Source: a virus. Taken from it: a stretch of 64,000 nucleotides of DNA. The stretch lies in IMG/VR virus record IMGVR_UViG_3300034093_002316, positions 3,930-67,929 of that record. One strand, 5' to 3'. The position numbers and the translations under genes are program-made. Positions 2,692-51,408 of the stretch are shown here, piece by piece. The first letter of the stretch is position 1. Each line of letters opens with the position of its first letter. Below the pieces are notes generated by a model. It saw only the letters and a program-made list of their open reading frames with translations. It was not told where the DNA came from and made no database searches.

Positions 2692-5379
2692 TTATAATAC
2701 TGGACCTCCAGCTGGGGGTTGTGTTGATGCTCCAACAGATCTGCTAGATCGATATACTATATCTTTAATTTTAATCGTCGGATTTACTGTTAATGTTGAT
2801 GAATAATAAACGACAAAATAAATTAAACAATACATACCTTGTCTATCACTTATAGTAGTATTTGAAAAATTTAAATTCAGTACTCCGGATGATATTCTAT
2901 TAGAAGTCGTAGTACCTAGGTTAGTTGTTGATAAAATAGAAAAATTAGAAAATACATCATAATTCGTTGTTAACTGGCTTGATTGATATAAACTTCCTGT
3001 AGCAATATAATGTCTAATTGTTAAATCAGGAATACTACTTCCTCCAGCACTGTTGTCAATTTCAATATTAAATGAACATTGTATACTAGTTTCACCAGGC
3101 AATAAAAATGTATGAAATAAACTACCAGTTATACCATTTATTTCACCATTATCTATAGTTTGTCCTGCAGCAGAATATTCAGAGGTATCGTAATATAGTA
3201 ATCTACCGATATTTAATCCATCTGCATATTCTGCATTTGAATTAAATAATATATTACCATTATTCACTGCAATAAATGATGATGCAGTTACATCGCCATC
3301 TGCAGTTAAATAAAATCCACTTGATGAAATTTCTAAATTACCATTACTTCCGGAAATATATTGAGATGTAGGATCTCCAAAGAAAAATGTTTCGGTATGT
3401 ACATCTAATTCAGATGGAATAGTTGAATAACGAAAATAATTATTAGCATCTCCGTATAATTCTAATCCAACGCCACTATATGGTACGCCTCCTTTAGTAC
3501 CTGTAGATCCAGCTAGTGCAGAACCACTCCATAATAAAAATCCAGGAAATCCTGCAGCAAATCCTTCATATCCTAATGAACGAATAAATCCAGTATTTTT
3601 ATATCCGGATATAGCTACACCCGATTGCAGTGAATCTGCTACATACAAAGAACCGGTAAGCATAGAATAATCGCCATCGATATATCGATTACCGCCTTCC
3701 CAATTTTTATTATAAACATAACTAATTTGTCGACTTTTTTCTCCGTTAACGTTGTAATATTCGGCTTTGAATGTAAGTTGATTATCAGATTTATGTGCCG
3801 TTGGTACTAAGGTTCTTAATCTAGTATAATTAGGAGAATAACCAGAATCGTTGTCCGTTGTGGTTCTAACATCAGCTACTTCCCAAGTTCCAGATTCTAC
3901 TACTAATAACAATGTCCCAACGCCTTCTCTGTCAGTTTCAAAATTAAAAACAACATCATCATATCGTTGAGAATTTTGAGATATCGTTAATTCGCCAAGA
4001 CGTTTACCAAAACGTACGGGAAACTGTTGATTGAAATAGTCCGTTGCATCATAATCAAATGCACTACCGGACATGTATAAAGATAATTTCGCAGTGCTAG
4101 AGCCTGATAAAGCACCTATAGCATCGATAGTAATTTTGTATTCAGAATTTGCAATAAAAATGCCGTTGTATGTAGATTTTATTTTTGCAATGCTTACAGA
4201 ATTTTTTGCAGATATATCTACGTTATTTTGTATTTGCATTGCATTGTTTAATGATGCAGTTGACCAAGTTAATGTCGGTGCTGTTGCTGATATACCATTA
4301 ACATAAGAAACACCTTCCCAATATGTATTAATAACACTTTGTGTTGTAAATGATCCAATGCTAACATCCGGAAATAAAGATGAAGTGTCAGAAACAAATA
4401 TTTCCGTTTCTTCTAATTCAACATCATTTAACAATTCCCATGTACCAACAGTACCGTTGTTGTTCATGAAAACTTTTATTCGAGAAACATCTCCAGTTGC
4501 CGGGTCTAATCCTTTTATTTGCATCAAAGCAAATGATTCAGAATTTTGCGTAGCAACATAAGTAGGAGTAGCTTCGTATGAAATACTATATGCAGATGCA
4601 TCAAAACTAGAATATGTATGTCCCGATATGCTTTGGCTGCTATAAACTGTATATTCTGTATCTAACAATGCTACGGTTGAACTTAATATCTTTTTAATCG
4701 TACTCGAGTACGTAGTTGTAGATGGAGTGTATGCAGGGTTAGGAGCAGGATTTACTGGTGCAGTAACAGTTAAAGTACCAGTAGACATATCATTAGTAAA
4801 TAATCCTCCCGCTAATTCAACAGCTGGTTGACCATTATATGTAAAATACTTAACCGTGCCGGTGTTATACGTAGGAAATTGTCCGCCGGTTCCATATGTT
4901 CTAGCTAATTGAACTCCTACTTGTTCTTGTACAACTAAAGTTGGAGTAGTTTCAAAAATTATTTCTGATATGTTCGATACGTTAGGATTAACTGGTACAC
5001 TTCTGCTCCATTTAACATTAGGTTTACCTTGCCATTCTGCGGGAGCATTAACTGCTTCGCCTATCAATGTTATAGTGCAATTTCCAGGAGACGTTTCATC
5101 ATAAACGTAAATCGCTACAACCCTAGATTTATCGTCATCTATGTAATTGATAACTTCAGAATAAATAGGATTGCCGTTGTAATCTAAAACTTCTATGTTT
5201 AAAAAACTACCAGGACGTAAACTAGTTGGATTTCCTCGTAATTTAAAAAGATTTTTTCCGGAAGTTAATCGCGTAGGAAATTCGGATATTTGAAAATAAT
5301 CCGGAGATGTCGATGATGTATCTTCAAACCAAACCGGAACAAATTGTAAACCTTTATAAACCGCTTCTTTACGTTTCAT
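2692..5379 (-). CDS. Virion structural protein (tail/baseplate-associated)
   Basis: 895 aa, S/T/G-rich beta-type composition with SGS/TGS motifs like the neighbouring tail genes; late-promoter motif upstream. Confidence 0.55.
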   Translation of the reverse strand: MKRKEAVYKGLQFVPVWFEDTSSTSPDYFQISEFPTRLTSGKNLFKLRGNPTSLRPGSFLNIEVLDYNGNPIYSEVINYIDDDKSRVVAIYVYDETSPGNCTITLIGEAVNAPAEWQGKPNVKWSRSVPVNPNVSNISEIIFETTPTLVVQEQVGVQLARTYGTGGQFPTYNTGTVKYFTYNGQPAVELAGGLFTNDMSTGTLTVTAPVNPAPNPAYTPSTTTYSSTIKKILSSTVALLDTEYTVYSSQSISGHTYSSFDASAYSISYEATPTYVATQNSESFALMQIKGLDPATGDVSRIKVFMNNNGTVGTWELLNDVELEETEIFVSDTSSLFPDVSIGSFTTQSVINTYWEGVSYVNGISATAPTLTWSTASLNNAMQIQNNVDISAKNSVSIAKIKSTYNGIFIANSEYKITIDAIGALSGSSTAKLSLYMSGSAFDYDATDYFNQQFPVRFGKRLGELTISQNSQRYDDVVFNFETDREGVGTLLLVVESGTWEVADVRTTTDNDSGYSPNYTRLRTLVPTAHKSDNQLTFKAEYYNVNGEKSRQISYVYNKNWEGGNRYIDGDYSMLTGSLYVADSLQSGVAISGYKNTGFIRSLGYEGFAAGFPGFLLWSGSALAGSTGTKGGVPYSGVGLELYGDANNYFRYSTIPSELDVHTETFFFGDPTSQYISGSNGNLEISSSGFYLTADGDVTASSFIAVNNGNILFNSNAEYADGLNIGRLLYYDTSEYSAAGQTIDNGEINGITGSLFHTFLLPGETSIQCSFNIEIDNSAGGSSIPDLTIRHYIATGSLYQSSQLTTNYDVFSNFSILSTTNLGTTTSNRISSGVLNLNFSNTTISDRQGMYCLIYFVVYYSSTLTVNPTIKIKDIVYRSSRSVGASTQPPAGGPVL

Positions 5380-43679: not shown

Positions 43680-43805
43680 TCAATCAGGGGGTGCCTTACC
43701 CCTTTAACGAAACCCTCCCCACCCCCCCAGAACAAGGGGGGTCTATGGGGTCAAATCAGGGGGGGCTATACCCCATGTTGTTAGGGGGGCTACCTACCCC
43801 CCTTT
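43680..43805. other. G/C-tract-rich non-coding region with hairpins
   Basis: G-runs at 43687, 43736, 43747, 43759, 43784; matching C-runs; hairpin AGGGGGG-CTACCTA-CCCCCCT. Confidence 0.8.
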
Positions 43806-43828
43806 ACTAGTACTATATGTGGTTCTGC

Positions 43829-44071
43829 TTAACCTCGAATGCGTTCTATGATTATGCGGGTTGCTTCTTCTGCTTCTGGCAATGTGTGGTCTGCTTGTAT
43901 GCCTAGGGACTCCATCATGTTGTGAACAGTGGCCCATCGTGCACGCAGCGTGCCAACCAATTCATCTTCGTGGCCATATCGCTGTTCGGCTTGCTTTAAC
44001 TCTAACCACATCATGGCGTCTGTCTTTTGAATCTCTGTTACCATTGCTGCTTTTGTCATTGTCTTTTTCAT
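43829..44071 (-). CDS. Early hypothetical protein
   Basis: AGAGAGAT-ATG leader. Confidence 0.7.
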   Translation of the reverse strand: MKKTMTKAAMVTEIQKTDAMMWLELKQAEQRYGHEDELVGTLRARWATVHNMMESLGIQADHTLPEAEEATRIIIERIRG

Positions 44072-44116
44072 ATCTCTCTTGTTACGTATTATTACTCTAC
44101 TCTCTCTTATATTATA

Positions 44117-44320
44117 TTACTTGCTTAGTGCTTTAAGGCATTCCGGACATCCTACTTCTTCTATTCCGGCAGCGGCTGCGTGGTTGCTACTTAATGCTGG
44201 TGTACCACATAGGTTGCCTTTGCCGGATAAATATGCATGTGCCGTATTGGTCCACACATTGCCTTTGTTACCGAAAATCATAAACCCTTTTCCTAACTCT
44301 TTTACATTTACCTTTGTCAT
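44117..44320 (-). CDS. Early hypothetical protein with putative Zn ligands
   Basis: H..LCG...GCPEC; promoter cassette upstream. Confidence 0.7.
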   Translation of the reverse strand: MTKVNVKELGKGFMIFGNKGNVWTNTAHAYLSGKGNLCGTPALSSNHAAAAGIEEVGCPECLKALSK

Positions 44321-44386
44321 ATCTCTCTCTTTTTAATTTATATAAATATAATGATTTAATCTGTGCGTGTCAACCGAATAGTCAAC

Positions 44387-44545
44387 TTATTTGTGACTGT
44401 CTAATACGTACATCATGAACGTCGTATTCGGATACTTTGCTTTGTATATTGTATAGTCTACATAGCTTATTGCTAATGCTATCGCCGTTACTACTAAAGC
44501 TGCTACTACTAATTTGATTTTTACTTTTCTGCTTAATTTATACAT
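44387..44545 (-). CDS. Small membrane protein (52 aa, not in ORF track)
   Basis: MYKLSRKVKIKLVVAALVVTAIALAISYVDY...; own promoter cassette. Confidence 0.65.
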   Translation of the reverse strand: MYKLSRKVKIKLVVAALVVTAIALAISYVDYTIYKAKYPNTTFMMYVLDSHK

Positions 44546-44623
44546 CTCTCTATCTTTTTAATTATACTTAAATATAATGATAATAAGCACACGTGTCAAG
44601 CATTTTGCTAACTTTTTTTTACA

Positions 44624-44675
44624 GTGCAAAGCCGACGCCTTTCAGCGCCGACTTGCTATGTTGAGAGATATGTTT
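44624..44675 (-). ncRNA. Anti-leader element copy 1 (AAACAUAUCUCUCAACAUAG plus GAAA-capped stem)
   Basis: Follows the ATPase stop codon; stem AGUCGGCGCU-GAAA-GGCGUCGGCU with G-U pairs on the minus strand. Confidence 0.6.
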
Positions 44676-44677
44676 GC

Positions 44678-45628
44678 TTATTCTGCTGCGATGATTTGTT
44701 CTGCTATCATCTCCTCTGCGTTATCAAATCCCATCGCACATATTCTTGCCGCTTTGATAAAGCTTCTGAGGTTAATGTCAATGCCGGCATACTTCGCATC
44801 CAACGACTTCATTATCTCTAATGCCTTTTGCTTAGCCGCTAACGGAATGCTACGCTCCATACCTTCCATCAATTGCTCCATTCGAGTAAACATTTGCGTC
44901 GTGTTCATTGTGATATCCGACACGAAGCTTCTACTACGGATAGCCTCATCCAAGCGGCTTTGGTGGATGTTGCTGATGAATATGATGCGTCCTGTAAATT
45001 CGAAATGCGGTGGGATCGGATCGCCATACTCATCCTTAAGCGGCTTCGAAGAGATATAAGATATCTTGCGAGTGTCATAGCTGTCTAATGCCGCTTTAAG
45101 AATATTCACAGCATCGTCATCTTTGAATACCGAATCACAGTCATCCAATACGATTATCTTATCCGAGTTTTGATATAGCGTAATAAACAATCCGGCTGCG
45201 GTAGCACGACCCTTAAAGTGTACGAAGTCTTTGGACTCTGACAAACCTAATCCTTTAAGTGTCTCCTTAACCAAATGCGTCTTACCTACGCCAGCCATAC
45301 CCGTAATTACTAAGGAAGGTTGGATACCTCTACCTACCATCTTTGTGAGGCGCTCCAAGTTGCCAAACATCACTTGCGGATCTCTTGACTCTAATACTGT
45401 CATGAACGACATCTTTGCTGGAGCCGTGCTAGCTGGAGCCGTGCCGGCTTCTTTGCGGGACATTCTAGTTACTCTGCCGGAGCCGCTAACAACTAATACT
45501 TCCTTGTTCGCCTCAGCATTTCTTAACTGAACTGGACGGATTGCATCCTTCGGTGCAAACTCACCTGTCTTAACATTCTTTGCAAATAACTTGCCTTTTA
45601 CTCTTACTGGTTCAAATACATTTAACAT
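44678..45628 (-). CDS. AAA+ ATPase
   Basis: Walker A GMAGVGKT, Walker B IIVLDDCD, sensor IIFISN, Arg finger AIRSRS. Confidence 0.85.
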   Translation of the reverse strand: MLNVFEPVRVKGKLFAKNVKTGEFAPKDAIRPVQLRNAEANKEVLVVSGSGRVTRMSRKEAGTAPASTAPAKMSFMTVLESRDPQVMFGNLERLTKMVGRGIQPSLVITGMAGVGKTHLVKETLKGLGLSESKDFVHFKGRATAAGLFITLYQNSDKIIVLDDCDSVFKDDDAVNILKAALDSYDTRKISYISSKPLKDEYGDPIPPHFEFTGRIIFISNIHQSRLDEAIRSRSFVSDITMNTTQMFTRMEQLMEGMERSIPLAAKQKALEIMKSLDAKYAGIDINLRSFIKAARICAMGFDNAEEMIAEQIIAAE

Positions 45629-45716
45629 ATCTCTCTCTTTTTAATTTATATAAATATAATGATTTTTTTGGTACGTGTCAACCGTTTCGGTAACTTTTTT
45701 TAAGAAAAGTTTCTGG

Positions 45717-45971
45717 CTATTCTTCGCCAGCTAACTCCTCATGTAGATCCGTTAACCACTGCCGATCCATCATCTCTTGCTTATATGTCTTAACACAATA
45801 CAATTCGAATGGAGCAATTGGATCCTCTGATTTGAACTCGACATGGAATTCATCCCATACCTGACGCGACTCTTCGAAGGTTGCTAATACATCTGCCGGA
45901 GCTATGTCTAATTCATACTGCTGAACGATCCCTCCGGTTAACTCTCCCTTTACTGTTACATTTACTTTCAT
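45717..45971 (-). CDS. Early hypothetical protein
   Basis: Promoter cassette and AAGAT-ATG leader. Confidence 0.7.
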   Translation of the reverse strand: MKVNVTVKGELTGGIVQQYELDIAPADVLATFEESRQVWDEFHVEFKSEDPIAPFELYCVKTYKQEMMDRQWLTDLHEELAGEE

Positions 45972-46064
45972 ATCTCTTATCTCTTATTATTATACTTAAA
46001 GATAATGATAATAACCGTGCGTGTCAAGCATTTTGCAAACTTTTTTTAAACTTTTTTTTTTTTG

Positions 46065-46178
46065 TAGTCAGGGAGGACTCGAACCCCAATCTCTCGGCAA
46101 GACTTAATGTATATTCTCGGGTCATGACTCCTCACCTTTTACTGCTCACCAAGCGCGTTACCAATTAGCTACCTGACT
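46065..46178 (-). ncRNA. tRNA-like RNA 1 (AGUCAGG/CCUGACU-A family), enlarged interior
   Basis: Acceptor AGTCAGG/CCTGACT, D-like TAGCTAATTGGTAACGC, T-loop GGTTCGAGTCC; no canonical anticodon arm. Confidence 0.7.
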
Positions 46179-46257
46179 GTAATAAGAGGCTTCGTCAACG
46201 GTGCACTGCGATAAGGTCTTCTGAAATTATCTGTGTACAAAGTATCCACCTCTTACA

Positions 46258-46313
46258 CGTCCGCAAGGGCCAACATCGCTGCTGACCCGGGGACTATGTT
46301 GAGAGATATGTTT
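46258..46313 (-). ncRNA. Anti-leader element copy 2 (AAACAUAUCUCUCAACAUAG plus GCGA-capped stem)
   Basis: 20-nt identity with copy 1; stem GGGUCAGCA-GCGA-UGUUGGCCC. Confidence 0.6.
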
Positions 46314-46755
46314 ACTCCTCCGTTTGGGTTCCTAACCCGTCATTAACCGACTGCATTATTTCTTCCTCGCTAGGACCGCAGTCATCGTCTTCTTCGCCCT
46401 TCTCCAACTCTACAATGTCATCTGCAGCTTCCTCAACCAATTGGTCCAAAGCGCCGGTGACGTGCTCCATAATTTCGTACACATTAACATCGACACGATT
46501 TAATTCGATGCGGTTATCCCAATTTAACTCAAACTCCGCGGAACTTAAATCGACCAAGTCGCTGCTGTTATAGTCGAGGGCACGTTCGATTTTATTAGCA
46601 ATTTCCTCAGCAAACTCCGGAGTCAATTTGAATTCCTTCTCGACAACAACTACCGGCTCGATGCTTTGGATCAATGCAATAACATTGTCAATGCTTACTA
46701 CTGAGGTTAACTCCTTTGCTCCCTCTAACTGTGCAATTAAATTTTCTTTTGTCAT
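46312..46755 (-). CDS. Early acidic hypothetical protein
   Basis: AGAGAGAT-ATG leader; very acidic. Confidence 0.7.
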   Translation of the reverse strand: MTKENLIAQLEGAKELTSVVSIDNVIALIQSIEPVVVVEKEFKLTPEFAEEIANKIERALDYNSSDLVDLSSAEFELNWDNRIELNRVDVNVYEIMEHVTGALDQLVEEAADDIVELEKGEEDDDCGPSEEEIMQSVNDGLGTQTEE

Positions 46756-46828
46756 ATCTCTCTCTTTTTAATTATATTTAAATTTAATGATTTTTTTGTT
46801 CGGTTCCTAATTTTTTAGCAACTTTTTT

Positions 46829-46945
46829 TTAATAAATTACAGGCTCAATAAAGTTACCAATTACCAATTGAACTGTGGCATACAATGCCGATACGGTGAA
46901 CAATGTTACGAAAACTACGTCTACTACTTTTTCTACTCTTTTCAT
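46829..46945 (-). CDS. Small membrane protein (38 aa)
   Basis: MKRVEKVVDVVFVTLFTVSALYATVQLVIGNFIEPVIY behind its own promoter cassette. Confidence 0.6.
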   Translation of the reverse strand: MKRVEKVVDVVFVTLFTVSALYATVQLVIGNFIEPVIY

Positions 46946-47030
46946 ATATCTCTCTTTTTAAATTTATAATATAAAAATAATGAATTAAATAATGCGTGTC
47001 AAGCTTTTTTGAAACTTTTTTAAACTTTTT

Positions 47031-47177
47031 TTACTTGAATCGAAACTCGTCTAATTCGGCTTCAACATCTTTGAGTGCCTGGCCAACTTCATCGTCTTGC
47101 TGGAATAAGTCATATGACTCCATGATGTTTCTCAGTTCTCGTACTTTTGCTTCTAATGCTTTTAGTTCTCTCTTCAT
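47031..47177 (-). CDS. Small coiled-coil protein (48 aa)
   Basis: MKRELKALEAKVRELRNIMESYDLFQQDDEVGQALKDVEAELDEFRFK. Confidence 0.6.
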   Translation of the reverse strand: MKRELKALEAKVRELRNIMESYDLFQQDDEVGQALKDVEAELDEFRFK

Positions 47178-47180
47178 TTC

Positions 47181-47273
47181 TTAATTGTAAAGTTCCACAT
47201 AAATTAAAGCGTCAATCATCAATTCGGACTGACATATCATCATTCTGATTTCTCTTATTTCCTTTGCTGTCAT
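47181..47273 (-). CDS. Small protein (30 aa)
   Basis: MTAKEIREIRMMICQSELMIDALIYVELYN, tightly packed between neighbours. Confidence 0.45.
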   Translation of the reverse strand: MTAKEIREIRMMICQSELMIDALIYVELYN

Positions 47274-47274
47274 G

Positions 47275-47394
47275 TTAAGCCGTTTTAAGTGTGAATACTA
47301 TTGCCGGGATCAAACCGATAACTCCTAATACATTACCGAATGCTAACATTGTGCCTCCGATTACTGCTACTGCGAAAATTAATGCGTTTCTCAT
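47275..47394 (-). CDS. Small membrane protein (39 aa)
   Basis: MRNALIFAVAVIGGTMLAFGNVLGVIGLIPAIVFTLKTA behind a promoter cassette. Confidence 0.6.
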   Translation of the reverse strand: MRNALIFAVAVIGGTMLAFGNVLGVIGLIPAIVFTLKTA

Positions 47395-47478
47395 ATCTCT
47401 TATTTTTTTATCTATACTTAAAGATAATGATAATAACCATGCGTGTCAAGCATTTCGGCAAAAAAGTTTAAAAAAAGT

Positions 47479-48219
47479 TTATAGGTATTGTTCCAACAAT
47501 TCGATGCCTGGAAGCGATGCCAATGCCAATTCAGCACCTCTAACTAACTGTCTGGCTCTTTCATTGGTTACTCCCATCTCCTCAGCAATCTGATCCATAC
47601 ATTGTGGATACTCCCGTCCAATGCCATAGAATCTGCGTATAGCTTCTTCCTGCTTCGGCTTAAGCTGCGCTAAGACTCTGTTTAAGTCGTATTGCAAATC
47701 AGCCATGTCCCTCGAGGATTTCACGCTATCCGCAGCCAAGTAACGATCCGCATAGGTTTCCTTGTTCTCATCATCGCCTACCGGAGTGTGGATACTCTTT
47801 GTAGAATACTCTTCGGTTGCTGTGCGATGTGAAGGAATCCTAACCACTCTGGATAAGTCATTGAGTGCCTTTTGCAATTCGGCTCTGATGTACCACACCG
47901 CAAAGGTAATGAATTTGACACCTTTCTCCGGATTGAATCTTTCAGCCGCTTCGAAGAGTCCTACATTGCCGAATGCGATGAGATCCTCCAATGCCAATCC
48001 CATTCCTTGATACTGCTTTGCTACTTGAATCACAAAGCGAAGGTTGGCTTCTACCAAGGCATTAACGGCCTTTCTGTCTCCGGCGGCTGCGGCTCTGCCT
48101 AATGTGGTTTCTTGTTCTCTGGTAAGGGCACCAATCTTCTTGGTCTCTTGGATATATCTCAATGTGCTTGCTACATCCGTTACAATTGCTCCTGTGCTTA
48201 CGTGAATTTTCTTTGCCAT
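47479..48219 (-). CDS. RNA polymerase sigma-70 family factor (RpoD/RpoS-like regions 1.2-4)
   Basis: LTREQE, LVEANLRFVIQVAKQY, DLIAFGNVGL..AAERF, KFITFAVWYIR, VRIP, IAEEMGVTNERARQL. Confidence 0.93.
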   Translation of the reverse strand: MAKKIHVSTGAIVTDVASTLRYIQETKKIGALTREQETTLGRAAAAGDRKAVNALVEANLRFVIQVAKQYQGMGLALEDLIAFGNVGLFEAAERFNPEKGVKFITFAVWYIRAELQKALNDLSRVVRIPSHRTATEEYSTKSIHTPVGDDENKETYADRYLAADSVKSSRDMADLQYDLNRVLAQLKPKQEEAIRRFYGIGREYPQCMDQIAEEMGVTNERARQLVRGAELALASLPGIELLEQYL

Positions 48220-48260
48220 AACTCTCTTTTGTTTTTAAATGAATAACTAATTGCAACCGA

Positions 48261-48458
48261 CTACTTGCCGGTTGCTAAGAACTTAAATGATACTCTCGTC
48301 GGCTTCTCAACCTTCGCCCGGTACTCTGCGTTGCGTTCTCCTTGACGAATAGCTTGTGCTACTGTGGCAGTGTTGCCTCCGGTTCTTGCATCTTTACTCA
48401 TTTGAGCCATTACTGCTCCTTGTCTTTCGAATCCTGAATTTCTTCCTTTTTTTGCCAT
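48261..48458 (-). CDS. Early basic hypothetical protein
   Basis: Promoter cassette; likely co-transcribed with the sigma gene. Confidence 0.65.
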   Translation of the reverse strand: MAKKGRNSGFERQGAVMAQMSKDARTGGNTATVAQAIRQGERNAEYRAKVEKPTRVSFKFLATGK

Positions 48459-48531
48459 CTCTCTTATTTTTTAATTATAATATAAATATAATGATTATTT
48501 CTGTGCGTGTCAAGCATTTTCGAAACTTTTT

Positions 48532-48741
48532 TTAAGCTTCGATAATATCGGATTCCTGGAACTCGCGGATGTCAAAACTAACCATCTCATCCAATTCCTC
48601 TTCATCATAGCCAAAATCCTCAGCTACCAATTCGCGTGTTTTTTCCTCAGCGTCTATTTCGCTAGCAGCTTTAATGTAATACAAACTAGAATATTCAACG
48701 CCTTCAACATCGGTAACAATTACTACAAATAACTTTTTCAT
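48532..48741 (-). CDS. Early acidic hypothetical protein
   Basis: Promoter cassette. Confidence 0.7.
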   Translation of the reverse strand: MKKLFVVIVTDVEGVEYSSLYYIKAASEIDAEEKTRELVAEDFGYDEEELDEMVSFDIREFQESDIIEA

Positions 48742-48815
48742 ATATCTCTCTTTTTAAATTAATACTTAAATATAATGAAAATAATAATGCGTGTCAAGCA
48801 TTTTGCAAACTTTTT

Positions 48816-49046
48816 TTAATCTTTTTTTATGCCGTAACGCTTATCATACTGTTCACTGTCATACACATCAGCCGCTACCTCAGCTTCCGTCTCAACCATA
48901 TAAGCTAAGCAAGCAATGATATCCTCAATCTCAAAGCCATCCATTAATGCCTGGCGAGTTAAGTTTTTCGCAGCTACGGCTAAATCATTTTGGTAAATAC
49001 GATTTGTTACACTTGCAAATCTGTCTAATACATTAATGTCTCTCAT
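48816..49046 (-). CDS. Early hypothetical protein
   Basis: Promoter cassette. Confidence 0.7.
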   Translation of the reverse strand: MRDINVLDRFASVTNRIYQNDLAVAAKNLTRQALMDGFEIEDIIACLAYMVETEAEVAADVYDSEQYDKRYGIKKD

Positions 49047-49121
49047 ATCTCTTTCTTTTTTTATTAATACTTAAATATAATAAATAAAACGATGCGTGTC
49101 AAGCATTTTGCTAACTTTTTT

Positions 49122-49412
49122 TTAACTTATTTCAACACATTCAAAATACACACCTTCCGCCAAAGCCAAATTAAACGTCGTGTCATCTACGTCAATAATC
49201 AATTCCAATAAAAACTCATCGTCAATTTGCTTATCCCAATCGTCACTTCCCTCAATCCATTCTACTAACTCCGTATTACTATAACAATATTCGGCGAATC
49301 TCCTTCTCACTTTTTTCAACAAATCCAATTTGTCTTCTGCGAACATTTCTATTCCGCTTTCTACTACTCCACCTCCAAATGCGTAACCAATTTCCAATTT
49401 AAATTCTCTCAT
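49122..49412 (-). CDS. Early acidic hypothetical protein
   Basis: Promoter cassette (TTAGGA variant). Confidence 0.7.
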   Translation of the reverse strand: MREFKLEIGYAFGGGVVESGIEMFAEDKLDLLKKVRRRFAEYCYSNTELVEWIEGSDDWDKQIDDEFLLELIIDVDDTTFNLALAEGVYFECVEIS

Positions 49413-49492
49413 ATCTCTTATTTTTAAATTAATACTTAAATATAATGAAAATAATAATGCGATCCTAATAAAAAGTAAAAAAAGTTTGCCGG

Positions 49493-49873
49493 CTAATTAA
49501 AGCCAACAAACCCTCGTTCTAATTCTAATCCCAAATCCTCAGCTATTTCCTTTAATCGGTAATACGGAGCATTCTCAATCTCTTGTGTTACAATGTTATC
49601 TATTCTTGCAATGCTATAACCGCATCCGATACCATAAAGGGTAACGGTCTTTTGGATAACTTCCATTGCGCCGGAAGACTGATCCCAATCAAATTCGCCC
49701 AACTCAGTCACGGTAACACCTAATGCAAATGCTGTGGACTCTACGGCTTCATTCCACAATGCGAATACTTTATCGCGTACCACATCAGCTACTACATCAT
49801 TGTGGTCATACATTTCGCGGCTCCATGGTTTTGTGATTTGGATTCCGTACTCTACTTTTGCTGTCTTTTTCAT
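49493..49873 (-). CDS. Early hypothetical protein
   Basis: Promoter cassette. Confidence 0.7.
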   Translation of the reverse strand: MKKTAKVEYGIQITKPWSREMYDHNDVVADVVRDKVFALWNEAVESTAFALGVTVTELGEFDWDQSSGAMEVIQKTVTLYGIGCGYSIARIDNIVTQEIENAPYYRLKEIAEDLGLELERGFVGFN

Positions 49874-49944
49874 ATATCTCTCTTTTTAATTTATATAAAG
49901 ATAAGGAAAAAAGAGATGCGTGTCAAGTATTTTGACAACTTTTT

Positions 49945-50148
49945 TTAACTTATTTCAATTACGGTAACTGGTACACTCGGATCCATGCCATAATAACATG
50001 TAATGTCGATATCCTCTAATTCGACAATACGTGCATTTTTTCTAGTTTTTACTACTTTTGCCCGTATTAATACATCCGGCGTGTTATCCCAAGAAAATTG
50101 TACAATTTGTCCTTTTGCTACAGTTCCTAATATTACTAAATTTTCCAT
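49945..50148 (-). CDS. Early hypothetical protein
   Basis: Promoter cassette. Confidence 0.7.
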   Translation of the reverse strand: MENLVILGTVAKGQIVQFSWDNTPDVLIRAKVVKTRKNARIVELEDIDITCYYGMDPSVPVTVIEIS

Positions 50149-50234
50149 GTCTCTCTTTTAAATTAATACTTAAAGATAATAATAAAAAGCACACGTGTCA
50201 AGCAAAATCCAAAAAAAGTTTGAAAAAAGTTTCG

Positions 50235-50595
50235 AAAAGGAGTCCCGGGAATAAGAGAGAGAAACCCAGGACCCCATTATCAACACAGTGCCTCAACACT
50301 GCCTTACCTAACCAACCGATCCGCCGGGAGTGTCTTTCGAGCACCATGATCCCGGACCCTGTCGGTTTATTTGAGAGATATGTTTTCATACAAAGGCCCG
50401 GAGGTGTTAGCTTGTGGCTTTTCCCTCGGGAGTGCGTAGCTTGTGGTTACCGGGCCTAGGTTCCATGTGATCGACGCTCAATACCCGTACCCGATATCCG
50501 GAGGCACTCAAAGACTAATACGACACACTTACCAATGTCTGATCCTTAAGGTCGCTCTCTTACGGCATTTGGTTGGATCAACCTTCCTTCTTATT
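50235..50595 (-). ncRNA. Candidate ~360-nt structured ncRNA carrying two anti-leader sequences
   Basis: Promoter-like TTGGAA..TATTAT at ~50605-50633; stems UGAUCC/GGAUCA, AGGCCCGG/CCGGGCCU, AACCGA/UCGGUU, CAGUG/CACUG; terminal hairpin plus U-tract. Confidence 0.65.
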
Positions 50596-50616
50596 TACAC
50601 TTATATAATATGAAAT

Positions 50617-51344
50617 CTAAAAATGAATTCCAACCGAATCCAAAAATAAATCTAAAAATCGTCTAAAAATAACGGCGCGTTGGACTAAAAATAGACCCGG
50701 GATGGTGCCGGTTTCGTCTAAAAATACGAGTCGCTATAGCTAGGTCAGCAAATGTAACGTGCTTATAGTGCATCTTCGTCTAAAAATCAAAACCCCATTT
50801 CGTCTAAAAATAGCCTGATTTCGTCTAAAAATAGCAGGGAGGAGCGGATATGCATCTAAAAATAGCCTGATTTCGTCTAAAAATAGGACTCGCTATATAT
50901 AGCATCTCCATCAGTAGTTGCACTATAACACATATAGCACATCTATATACCGAGACGTATAAGCTAGCGATCACGTAGATCCATCAGTATAGCTACCGTT
51001 AATACACCTACACACAACACTAAAAATGGCAATCCTAATCCAGACATATGATTCGTTTTCTATAATATAAGGAAACCCATCTAAAAATCAAACCTGGAAT
51101 TGAACTAAAAATCGTCTAAAAATAGCCGGAACGGTTGGAATTGTGGATTCCCTTTTACACTGCGTATACGTGCGTCTAGGCGGCTTGATATATACGTATA
51201 TACCGTGCCTTGTAATAAAGAGTCTATGCCCCATGGAAACATTGTATTGGGAGGGTGATATATATAACCAATCTGGACTACCTATACTAGACACAATTTC
51301 GTCTAAAAATAGACTGCCATATCTGCGTATTTTAATCTAAAAAT
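50617..51344 (+). repeat. Array of 16 same-orientation CTAAAAAT repeats (often TTTCGTCTAAAAATAG)
   Basis: Copies at 50617, 50652, 50663, 50685, 50718, 50780, 50804, 50825, 50856, 50877, 51020, 51081, 51105, 51116, 51303, 51337. Confidence 0.9.
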
Positions 51345-51408
51345 AATCTAGAGATGCTGAGGGATTCTCGTTACTAGACACGTGGTCGATTGCGGTGCTG
51401 GGTACTAG

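Follow-up and report, generated by a model that had tools for sequence, protein, structure and literature searches.

Introduction

Timed gene expression has its textbook example in T4-type phages, and phage RNAs directed against ribosome-binding regions, buried translation starts in T4, sibling small RNAs (sRNAs) from 3' untranslated regions (3'UTRs) and PeSL cassettes are all known already. Here we compare these systems with an element in a 64,000-nucleotide (nt) stretch of viral DNA, hereafter the window, which is part of a 67.9-kb virus record (positions 3,930 to 67,929 of IMG/VR record IMGVR_UViG_3300034093_002316). The element is a short minus-strand sequence, present in three anti-leader copies, that is antisense to a leader shared by a block of early genes, and each copy is treated below as a candidate seed for RNA pairing. 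A shared private leader combined with several sibling seeds was not found in print for a T4-type phage; this negative, like every statement that carries a PMC number, holds for the portions of the sources consulted. The first-pass annotation of this DNA had known of no described phage system like it, which was too strong, as c4 RNA, the T4 buried starts, the CcsR RNAs and the PeSL cassettes are its relatives in kind.

The c4 RNA of phages is cut from its target's own transcript, and its exposed stretches pair with the ribosome-binding region, blocking translation. The c4 antisense RNA of P1 and P7 was reportedly treated by Citron and Schuster in 1990. The present element resembles it in being a phage RNA with a stretch complementary to the ribosome-binding region and with a proposed translation block; however, c4 acts on one operon (icd-ant) of a temperate phage, whereas the phage here is T4-like and virulent and would set three or four seeds against about 15-20 early genes. 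In Staphylococcus aureus, the icaR mRNA carries a 3'UTR motif antisense to its own ribosome-binding region (5'-3' UTR pairing), a likeness shared by the 12-bp pairing of copy 1 with the ATPase start described below, although icaR is a single bacterial gene. CpxQ and SroC exemplify the 3'UTR-derived types of sRNA. In addition, the CcsR1-4 RNAs are cut from the ccaF1 3'UTR (PMC8034643). The likeness lies in a conserved seed between stop codon and stable hairpin and in sibling copies with one seed; those sRNAs come from bacteria, depend mostly on Hfq or RNase E and have true terminators at their ends, whereas the hairpins here lack U-runs.

In longer T4 transcripts, the ribosome site or AUG of genes e, soc, 49 and I-TevI is buried by pairing with sequence upstream (PMC3014915). 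Copy 2 in relatives of the window is predicted to fold onto the next gene similarly, but the T4 cases are single-gene cis hairpins with an internal promoter, whereas here one invariant sequence occupies three sites, including a non-coding RNA and sites without an adjacent gene. PeSL cassettes of T4-type phages combine a repeated stem-loop, an AT-rich tract, an early promoter and a start region, border small orphan genes and act as sites of recombination (PMC2839356; PMC4122927). Their layout (intergenic stem-loop, AT-rich tract, sigma-70-like early promoter, T4-type phage) was found at copy 1; however, the consulted portion of PMC2839356 describes no antisense to a cassette's own start region, and the anti-leader is an extra present at only two or three junctions. 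T4 RegA, a translational repressor protein, binds many early messages on or close to the AUG (PMC3014915); the role proposed here is alike, but the agent would be an RNA. Among the papers listed by a literature search on phage antisense and small RNAs, and in the consulted portions of a 2025 review (PMC12197685), no anti-leader regulon in a virulent phage was seen.

A 2010 review noted that T4 had yielded no functionally characterised small regulatory RNA acting in trans and invited candidates from related genomes (PMC3014915). The element lends itself to testing as such a candidate: its seed is single and short, its target set is sharply bounded, natural variants suggest which mutations should compensate, and over 100 related sequences are at hand. 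If the proposal is true, it would show how translation can be controlled by a phage in a host type largely without Shine-Dalgarno (SD) sites, and the element could serve as a compact, portable translational switch.

Three minus-strand copies are antisense to the early leader

The element CAUAUCUCUC is the exact antisense of the early leader GAGAGAUAUG, AUG included, as the first-pass annotation had claimed. The features concerned are as follows.

44069-50155, minus strand: sense leaders (A)GAGAGAU-AUG of the early genes, with exact 10-mers at 44069-78, 44318-27, 45626-35 and 46753-62
44656-44675, minus strand: anti-leader copy 1 (AAACAUAUCUCUCAACAUAG), in the 3'UTR of the AAA ATPase gene, beginning 2 nt past TAA
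44626-44655, minus strand: hairpin after copy 1, GAAA cap, three G.U pairs, no U-run (fold -20.0 kcal/mol, z -4.6)
46294-46313, minus strand: anti-leader copy 2, the identical 20-mer, overlapping the TAA of a 147-aa ORF
46259-46293, minus strand: copy-2 hairpin, GUCC..stem-GCGA-stem..UUGC-GGAC (covariation and fold energy)
50371-50385, minus strand: anti-leader copy 3 (AAACAUAUCUCUCAA), inside a conserved non-coding RNA
50310-50365, minus strand: compound stem after copy 3, GAAA cap (consensus fold and fold energy)
44678-45628, minus strand: AAA ATPase gene, 316 amino acids (aa), a relative of T4-group nrdC.10, whose start region pairs over 12 bp with copy 1
46312-46755, minus strand: open reading frame (ORF) of 147 aa upstream of copy 2, no Pfam match

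The 10-mer CATATCTCTC occurs seven times in the window when both strands are counted, against 0.13 expected from shuffles, and none of 100 shuffles reached seven. Three occurrences lie on the minus strand (44663-72, 46301-10 and 50373-82), and the four on the plus strand are the exact sense leaders of the minus-strand genes starting at 44071, 44320, 45628 and 46755. Leader matches at nine of ten positions (AAGAGATATG) were found at the starts 45971, 47394, 49046 and 49412. The 20-mer AAACATATCTCTCAACATAG is identical at 44656-75 and 46294-313, and the third copy (50366-85) has its first 15 nt in common with it. The leaders, their 10-mer and 9-mer starts, the three minus-strand reverse complements and the identical 20-mers thus agreed with the first-pass annotation in every detail checked.

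Each copy precedes a GNRA-capped hairpin, with the loops GAAA, GCGA and GAAA after copies 1, 2 and 3, respectively. The stem after copy 1 folded at -20.0 kcal/mol on the minus strand compared with -7.5 kcal/mol on the plus strand, and that after copy 2 at -16.7 compared with -8.6 kcal/mol, which bears out the earlier statement that the G-U pairs of these two stems work on the minus strand only. For the stem after copy 3 the asymmetry between strands was small (minus -19.4, plus -17.8 kcal/mol). Plain intrinsic terminators were rejected for copies 1 and 2: a simple terminator scan called neither stem, and neither has a U-run. The comparison with Rfam that had been suggested (Rfam 15, the window at gathering score and 43900-51200 at E up to 10) found no family for the modules or for the non-coding RNA that holds copy 3, and the covariance model of c4 RNA (RF01695) had no match in the window at gathering score or in 43900-51200 at E up to 10. 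The sole Rfam match above gathering in the region was a tRNA-like element at 46065-46178.

A reading that leaves the minus-strand transcript aside is that the plus-strand GAGAGATATG sites start real peptides, since at copy 1 the plus-strand ATG opens a 129-codon frame antisense to the ATPase gene. Over 36 distinct relatives, however, this frame ranged from 3 to 129 codons and its phase shifted with the spacing between stop and motif, and the frames that open at copies 2 and 3 run to about 12 and 19 codons (read by eye). The first-pass annotation had named such peptides as a possible refutation of the antisense reading; with the frame unconserved in relatives they were rejected, and we give them next to no chance.

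The leader is a private mark of the early block

Between 43.8 and 50.6 kb, the minus strand holds a block of small early genes, each with a promoter-like site and a leader ending in (A)GAGAGAU-AUG. Each cassette of the block comprises a single gene together with its promoter, a UP-like A-tract and the leader, and 11 promoter-like sites match TTGACA-17-TAT(A/C/T)TT at 10 or 11 of 12 positions; after the copy-1 hairpin, for example, come A-tracts and TTGACA-17-TATATT (44599-44571). Beyond 44069-50155, the 67.9-kb record gives just two leader matches, with one mismatch each. Because the non-early genes of the whole record have A/U-rich starts without SD sites, the GAGAGAU leader sets the early block apart. 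These SD-less starts point to a host with SD-independent initiation, such as Bacteroidota, which largely lack SD sites.

The seed is predicted to pair with early starts, possibly in part in cis

Seed duplexes of -12 kcal/mol or better were predicted at 7 of 14 early starts compared with 0 of 84 other starts. The 12-bp pairing GAGAGAUAUGUU/AACAUAUCUCUC across the ATPase gene reached -18.0 kcal/mol and ranked first of 34 gene starts. The pairing from which the first-pass annotation had derived a cis circularisation of the ATPase message is thus real, and it bears on a purely cis explanation of the element. There, copy 2 would be a 5' arm that buries the next start and is opened by ribosomes on the upstream ORF (translational coupling), and copy 1 would close the ATPase message 5' to 3' or mask the next start in read-through. 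Buried start regions of this kind are known in T4 (PMC3014915), and the seed lies 2-8 nt past a stop codon in all cases listed.

For copy 1, comparison among the relatives described below showed that the ATPase gene's own leader and 3'UTR paired better when matched (-14.07 kcal/mol) than when crossed (-13.18 kcal/mol), in a test that ignores relatedness. Pairing was stronger with the gene's own leader than with that of the next gene in 40 of 56 distinct cases (2 ties, 14 worse), and for the next gene's leader the edge of matched over crossed pairs was marginal (-12.19 vs -11.94 kcal/mol, p=0.05). Position +4 in codon 2 and the seed-flank base 5' of CAU formed U:A, A:U or C:G in 20 of the 24 distinct pairs in standard register (read by eye). 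On the tree, however, the ATPase test gave only four independent contrasts, two or three going the same way and none opposite, which is not significant (sign test, p at least 0.25). Support for the circularisation claim is weak.

For copy 2, the minimum-energy fold in relatives paired it with the next leader and AUG in 11 of 14 distinct cases, three of these covering the purine tract only, and L003, L020 and L040 (relatives are given by locus label) did not pair. With the same downstream gene, one compensatory case was seen, CAUAUC with AGAGAUAUG (L007, L031, L057) against CAUGUC with AGAGACAUG (L043), an A-U to G-C change. Against this, covariation with the adjacent downstream leader was absent in general over 28 modules (matched -10.74, crossed -10.83 kcal/mol, p=0.71), and pairing with the upstream ORF's own leader was only moderate, with a weak edge (-12.11 vs -11.85 kcal/mol). 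No gene leader adjoins copy 2 in the window itself. The seed is constant whether a gene leader, tRNA, structured RNA or promoter comes next, or where it lies in the head non-coding RNA, and its conservation is equal where no leader follows, window copy 2 included; it is thus independent of any one neighbour. Copies displayed in loops in some clades, described below, also have no nearby cis partner. Cis pairing is plausible for the ATPase message but cannot account for the invariance of the seed, and a purely cis explanation appears unlikely to us.

A non-coding RNA at the head of the block carries copy 3 and an anti-leader loop

The third copy lies in a GC-richer stretch preceded by an iteron-like array and a promoter-like site, with the following features.

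50236-50598, minus strand: structured non-coding RNA of about 360 nt at the head of the early block (head RNA), downstream of promoter-like TTGGAA-17-TATTAT (50633-50605)
50239-50275, minus strand: head-RNA terminator hairpin with the 15-nt loop UUUCUCUCUCUUAUU (50250-50264) (-20.8 kcal/mol, z -3.6)

Copy 3 was present in eight of nine distinct head-RNA homologues and absent from L107. The consensus fold of the 3' domain (seven sequences) has 42 pairs, 17 of them with compensatory changes on both sides. The terminator loop, whose core is UUCUCUCUCUUAU, is antisense to the AAUAAGAGAGA part of the leaders; its core is invariant in all seven sequences, the terminator stems covary, and every position of the loop is predicted to be unpaired (P>0.78). 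Terminator-loop duplexes of -10 kcal/mol or better were predicted at 12 of 14 early starts compared with 3 of 84 others.

The sites are orthologous and the seed is conserved in relatives

We collected relatives through the ATPase, giving 26 IMG/VR loci (62-89% identity) and 80 metagenome loci, apparently all from fresh water. A search of sequencing runs for this phage listed 24 DNA runs from lake water and none of RNA. Among 107 sequences, 97 hold both ends of the ATPase gene and reduce to 71 distinct leader/3'UTR pairs. A megablast search of the 6.6-kb region against named phages found no match, and the ATPase is distant kin of nrdC.10 of T4-group phages, all below 60% identity.

The motif follows the ATPase stop, orthologous to copy 1, in 58 of the 71 pairs, and the exact 12-mer CATATCTCTCAA is kept in 70 of 92 distinct contexts when the three site types are taken together. 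All three window sites are orthologous in relatives. A 95%-complete relative of 160 kb holds only the three orthologous sites, two exact and copy 3 with one mismatch; three other one-mismatch matches were taken as chance, and the reverse strand gave none. This indicates a fixed set of three sites and not a dispersed repeat.

The copy-2 module occurs in 42 distinct versions among the relatives. Across the stems of 28 distinct modules, 5 of 10 pairs showed changes on both sides and 96.4% of cells were paired, a result reached by 0 of 500 shuffles, with at most two such pairs in slid controls. A fixed seed beside a variable, covarying stem is the usual pattern of base-pairing small RNAs.

A feature of the DNA itself could also produce repeated modules: a PeSL-type cassette boundary homogenised by recombination, or a duplex binding site used in two orientations, the antisense relation then arising from an inverted cassette start. 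The one-gene cassettes do resemble PeSLs (PMC2839356; PMC4122927), the module joins many different neighbours and is duplicated around a tRNA insert in L009, and copies 1 and 2 are more alike within a genome than across genomes (window vs the L014 group), which suggests gene conversion. However, every copy lies on the transcribed strand, and the stems with G.U pairs fold far better as transcript. Among the variant motif types, nine core transitions keep wobble pairing (C>U, A>G) and one does not. Nor can recombination alone explain why the seed persists where the ATPase has diverged to about 72% protein identity, or why it reappears in the loops of unrelated stems. We consider a DNA-level origin improbable.

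Some clades display the seed in loops, and divergent ones change it together with the leader

Clades without a post-ATPase copy, L010/L062 and L071, carry CAUAUCUCUC(UCUUAU) in large hairpin loops of the head RNA. In L010/L062 a 12-bp stem closes a 29-nt loop reading UUUCAUAUCUCUCUCUUAUCAUAUCUCUU, and the L071 loop is similar. L012 has one linear copy and two anti-leader loops in the RNA that heads its early block.

The co-variation of leader and element that the first-pass annotation had proposed looking for was found in divergent clades, which change both. The leaders of L022 and L098 have the form AAUUAAGAGAUAUG. Behind the sigma gene of L022 lies AUCAUAUCUUUUAAUUUUU, which can pair with some 17 nt of these leaders, one G.U included (read by eye), and is followed by a second seed and a true terminator. 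On the L022/L098 leaders the L022 element reached -13.0/-14.8 kcal/mol, compared with -7.8/-9.5 kcal/mol for the window's seed. L025, whose leaders lack GAGAG, carries CAUAUAUCUUUU, a weaker parallel of the L022 co-change. Taken together, display in unrelated scaffolds, clade-level co-change and wobble-compatible transitions are the signature of an antisense seed with many partners. The earlier idea of an antisense module is partly supported, by the location on the RNA strand, by three orthologous conserved sites and by single-stranded display in differing scaffolds.

The same clades bear on the possibility that the copies are an RNA motif that binds a protein or other factor together with its hairpin, the antisense likeness being incidental. 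Such a motif could be a nut-like site (boxA-like CUCUCAACA and GNRA stem), a C-rich, G-poor Rho entry site after stops, or a processing or stability signal. An invariant 12-mer beside a variable stem with a constant GNRA loop recalls the boxA-boxB arrangement; leader pairing leaves the conserved CAA and AUAG flanks unexplained, and the hairpins lack U-runs, hence are not plain terminators. However, a chance exact 10-nt reverse complement of a conserved motif of the same block is very unlikely, the architecture is not fixed, as the same sequence lies within 15-29 nt loops in other clades, and divergent clades alter the motif together with the leader. The boxB element is a 5-bp stem with a pentaloop, whereas the stems here have 9-13 bp with tetraloops, and neither stems nor loop copies showed the lambda-type nut order of a box followed by a short GNRA-like pentaloop stem. 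A factor-binding site accordingly has a small chance in our estimate.

Proposed explanation

Our preferred reading is that the copies are RNA antisense seeds against early translation starts, with mainly global action and some action in cis, and we hold it to be about evenly poised between right and wrong. Antisense identity, strand specificity, conservation, hairpin covariation, clade co-change and display in differing scaffolds are established; beyond these, we infer stable small RNAs, action in trans and repression as the effect. The seed would sit in early transcripts, in two 3'UTRs and in the non-coding RNA at the head of the block, and the GNRA hairpin would presumably shield the fragment from 3' exonucleases. 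The seed would then pair with the shared leader and AUG of early messages, so that ribosome entry is blocked. The head RNA and the 3' fragments shielded by their hairpins would persist longer than the messages and in this way damp or shut off early translation, a RegA-like role. Action in cis probably contributes at the ATPase message and, in relatives, at the gene directly after copy 2.

A RegA homologue was not found in records 95% and 100% complete by a search that did find RegA in phage Acj9, and a RegB homologue was not found in the same records by a search that had no positive control. A broader proposal, which we advance tentatively and would sooner doubt than assert, is that in a widespread freshwater T4-like lineage, probably of Bacteroidota phages, a private leader tags the early messages and sibling seeds (head RNA and 3'UTR fragments) control the set. 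This would be an RNA counterpart of RegA and the first trans-acting RNA regulon in a T4-type phage.

Several observations weigh against antisense seeds of this kind. The element is missing from 13 of the 71 distinct ATPase 3'UTRs and from the whole of the 10.8-kb contig L006, and the clade-level co-change is based on two or three lineages. For the head RNA, the RNAalifold structure has the seed's UAUCU paired to an invariant AGGUA, and single-sequence prediction gave the seed an accessibility of 0.3-0.56; in long contexts, accessibility predictions for the seeds point neither way clearly. The conserved CAA after CUCUC is unmatched by most leaders. The hairpins after copies 1 and 2 have no U-run, so termination does not predict the 3' ends. 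Finally, the seeds are made together with their targets, and with three or four seeds for about 15-20 leaders, shut-off needs unequal stability.

Neighbouring elements

Early promoters in 43800-50650 (minus strand) were read as TTGACA-17-TATATT, and a Bacteroidota-style TTG-N20-TAnnTTT(A) fits too; in some relatives the TTGACAC box is swapped for AGATTAGGAT(CC). The block includes an early sigma-70-like gene at 47479-48219. A hairpin (GCAACCGGCAAGUAGUCGGUUGC) at 48253-48275 (minus strand) overlaps the stop of the 65-aa ORF that precedes the sigma gene, and the same motif stands before the L022 sigma gene.

A tRNA-like element at 46065-46178 (minus strand), downstream of copy 2, scored 31.5 bits with the Rfam tRNA model (gathering 29). 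Its acceptor stem and T-arm are perfect, about 50 extra nt occupy the position of the anticodon loop, and ARAGORN gave no call for it. Between it and the copy-2 module lies a structured RNA of about 115 nt (46179-46258), a stretch common to L069. In relatives, tRNA or tRNA-like genes are inserted directly before the seed or after the hairpin module (L040:1034-1496, L010:~4040-4115 and L009 post-ATPase), and in L009 two copies of the module flank the tRNA, as though recombination at the module brought cassettes in.

The plus strand holds a 160-codon frame at 44577-45059, antisense to the ATPase gene. As its length is not conserved in relatives (3-129 codons counted from the ATG in the seed), codon usage probably accounts for it. 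At about 50620-51400 (minus strand), immediately upstream of the head RNA, non-coding DNA carries about 15 direct copies of (C)TATTTTTAGA(CGA), and a similar array occupies the same place in the relatives L001 and L010. The array may be an origin, a packaging site or a genome end.

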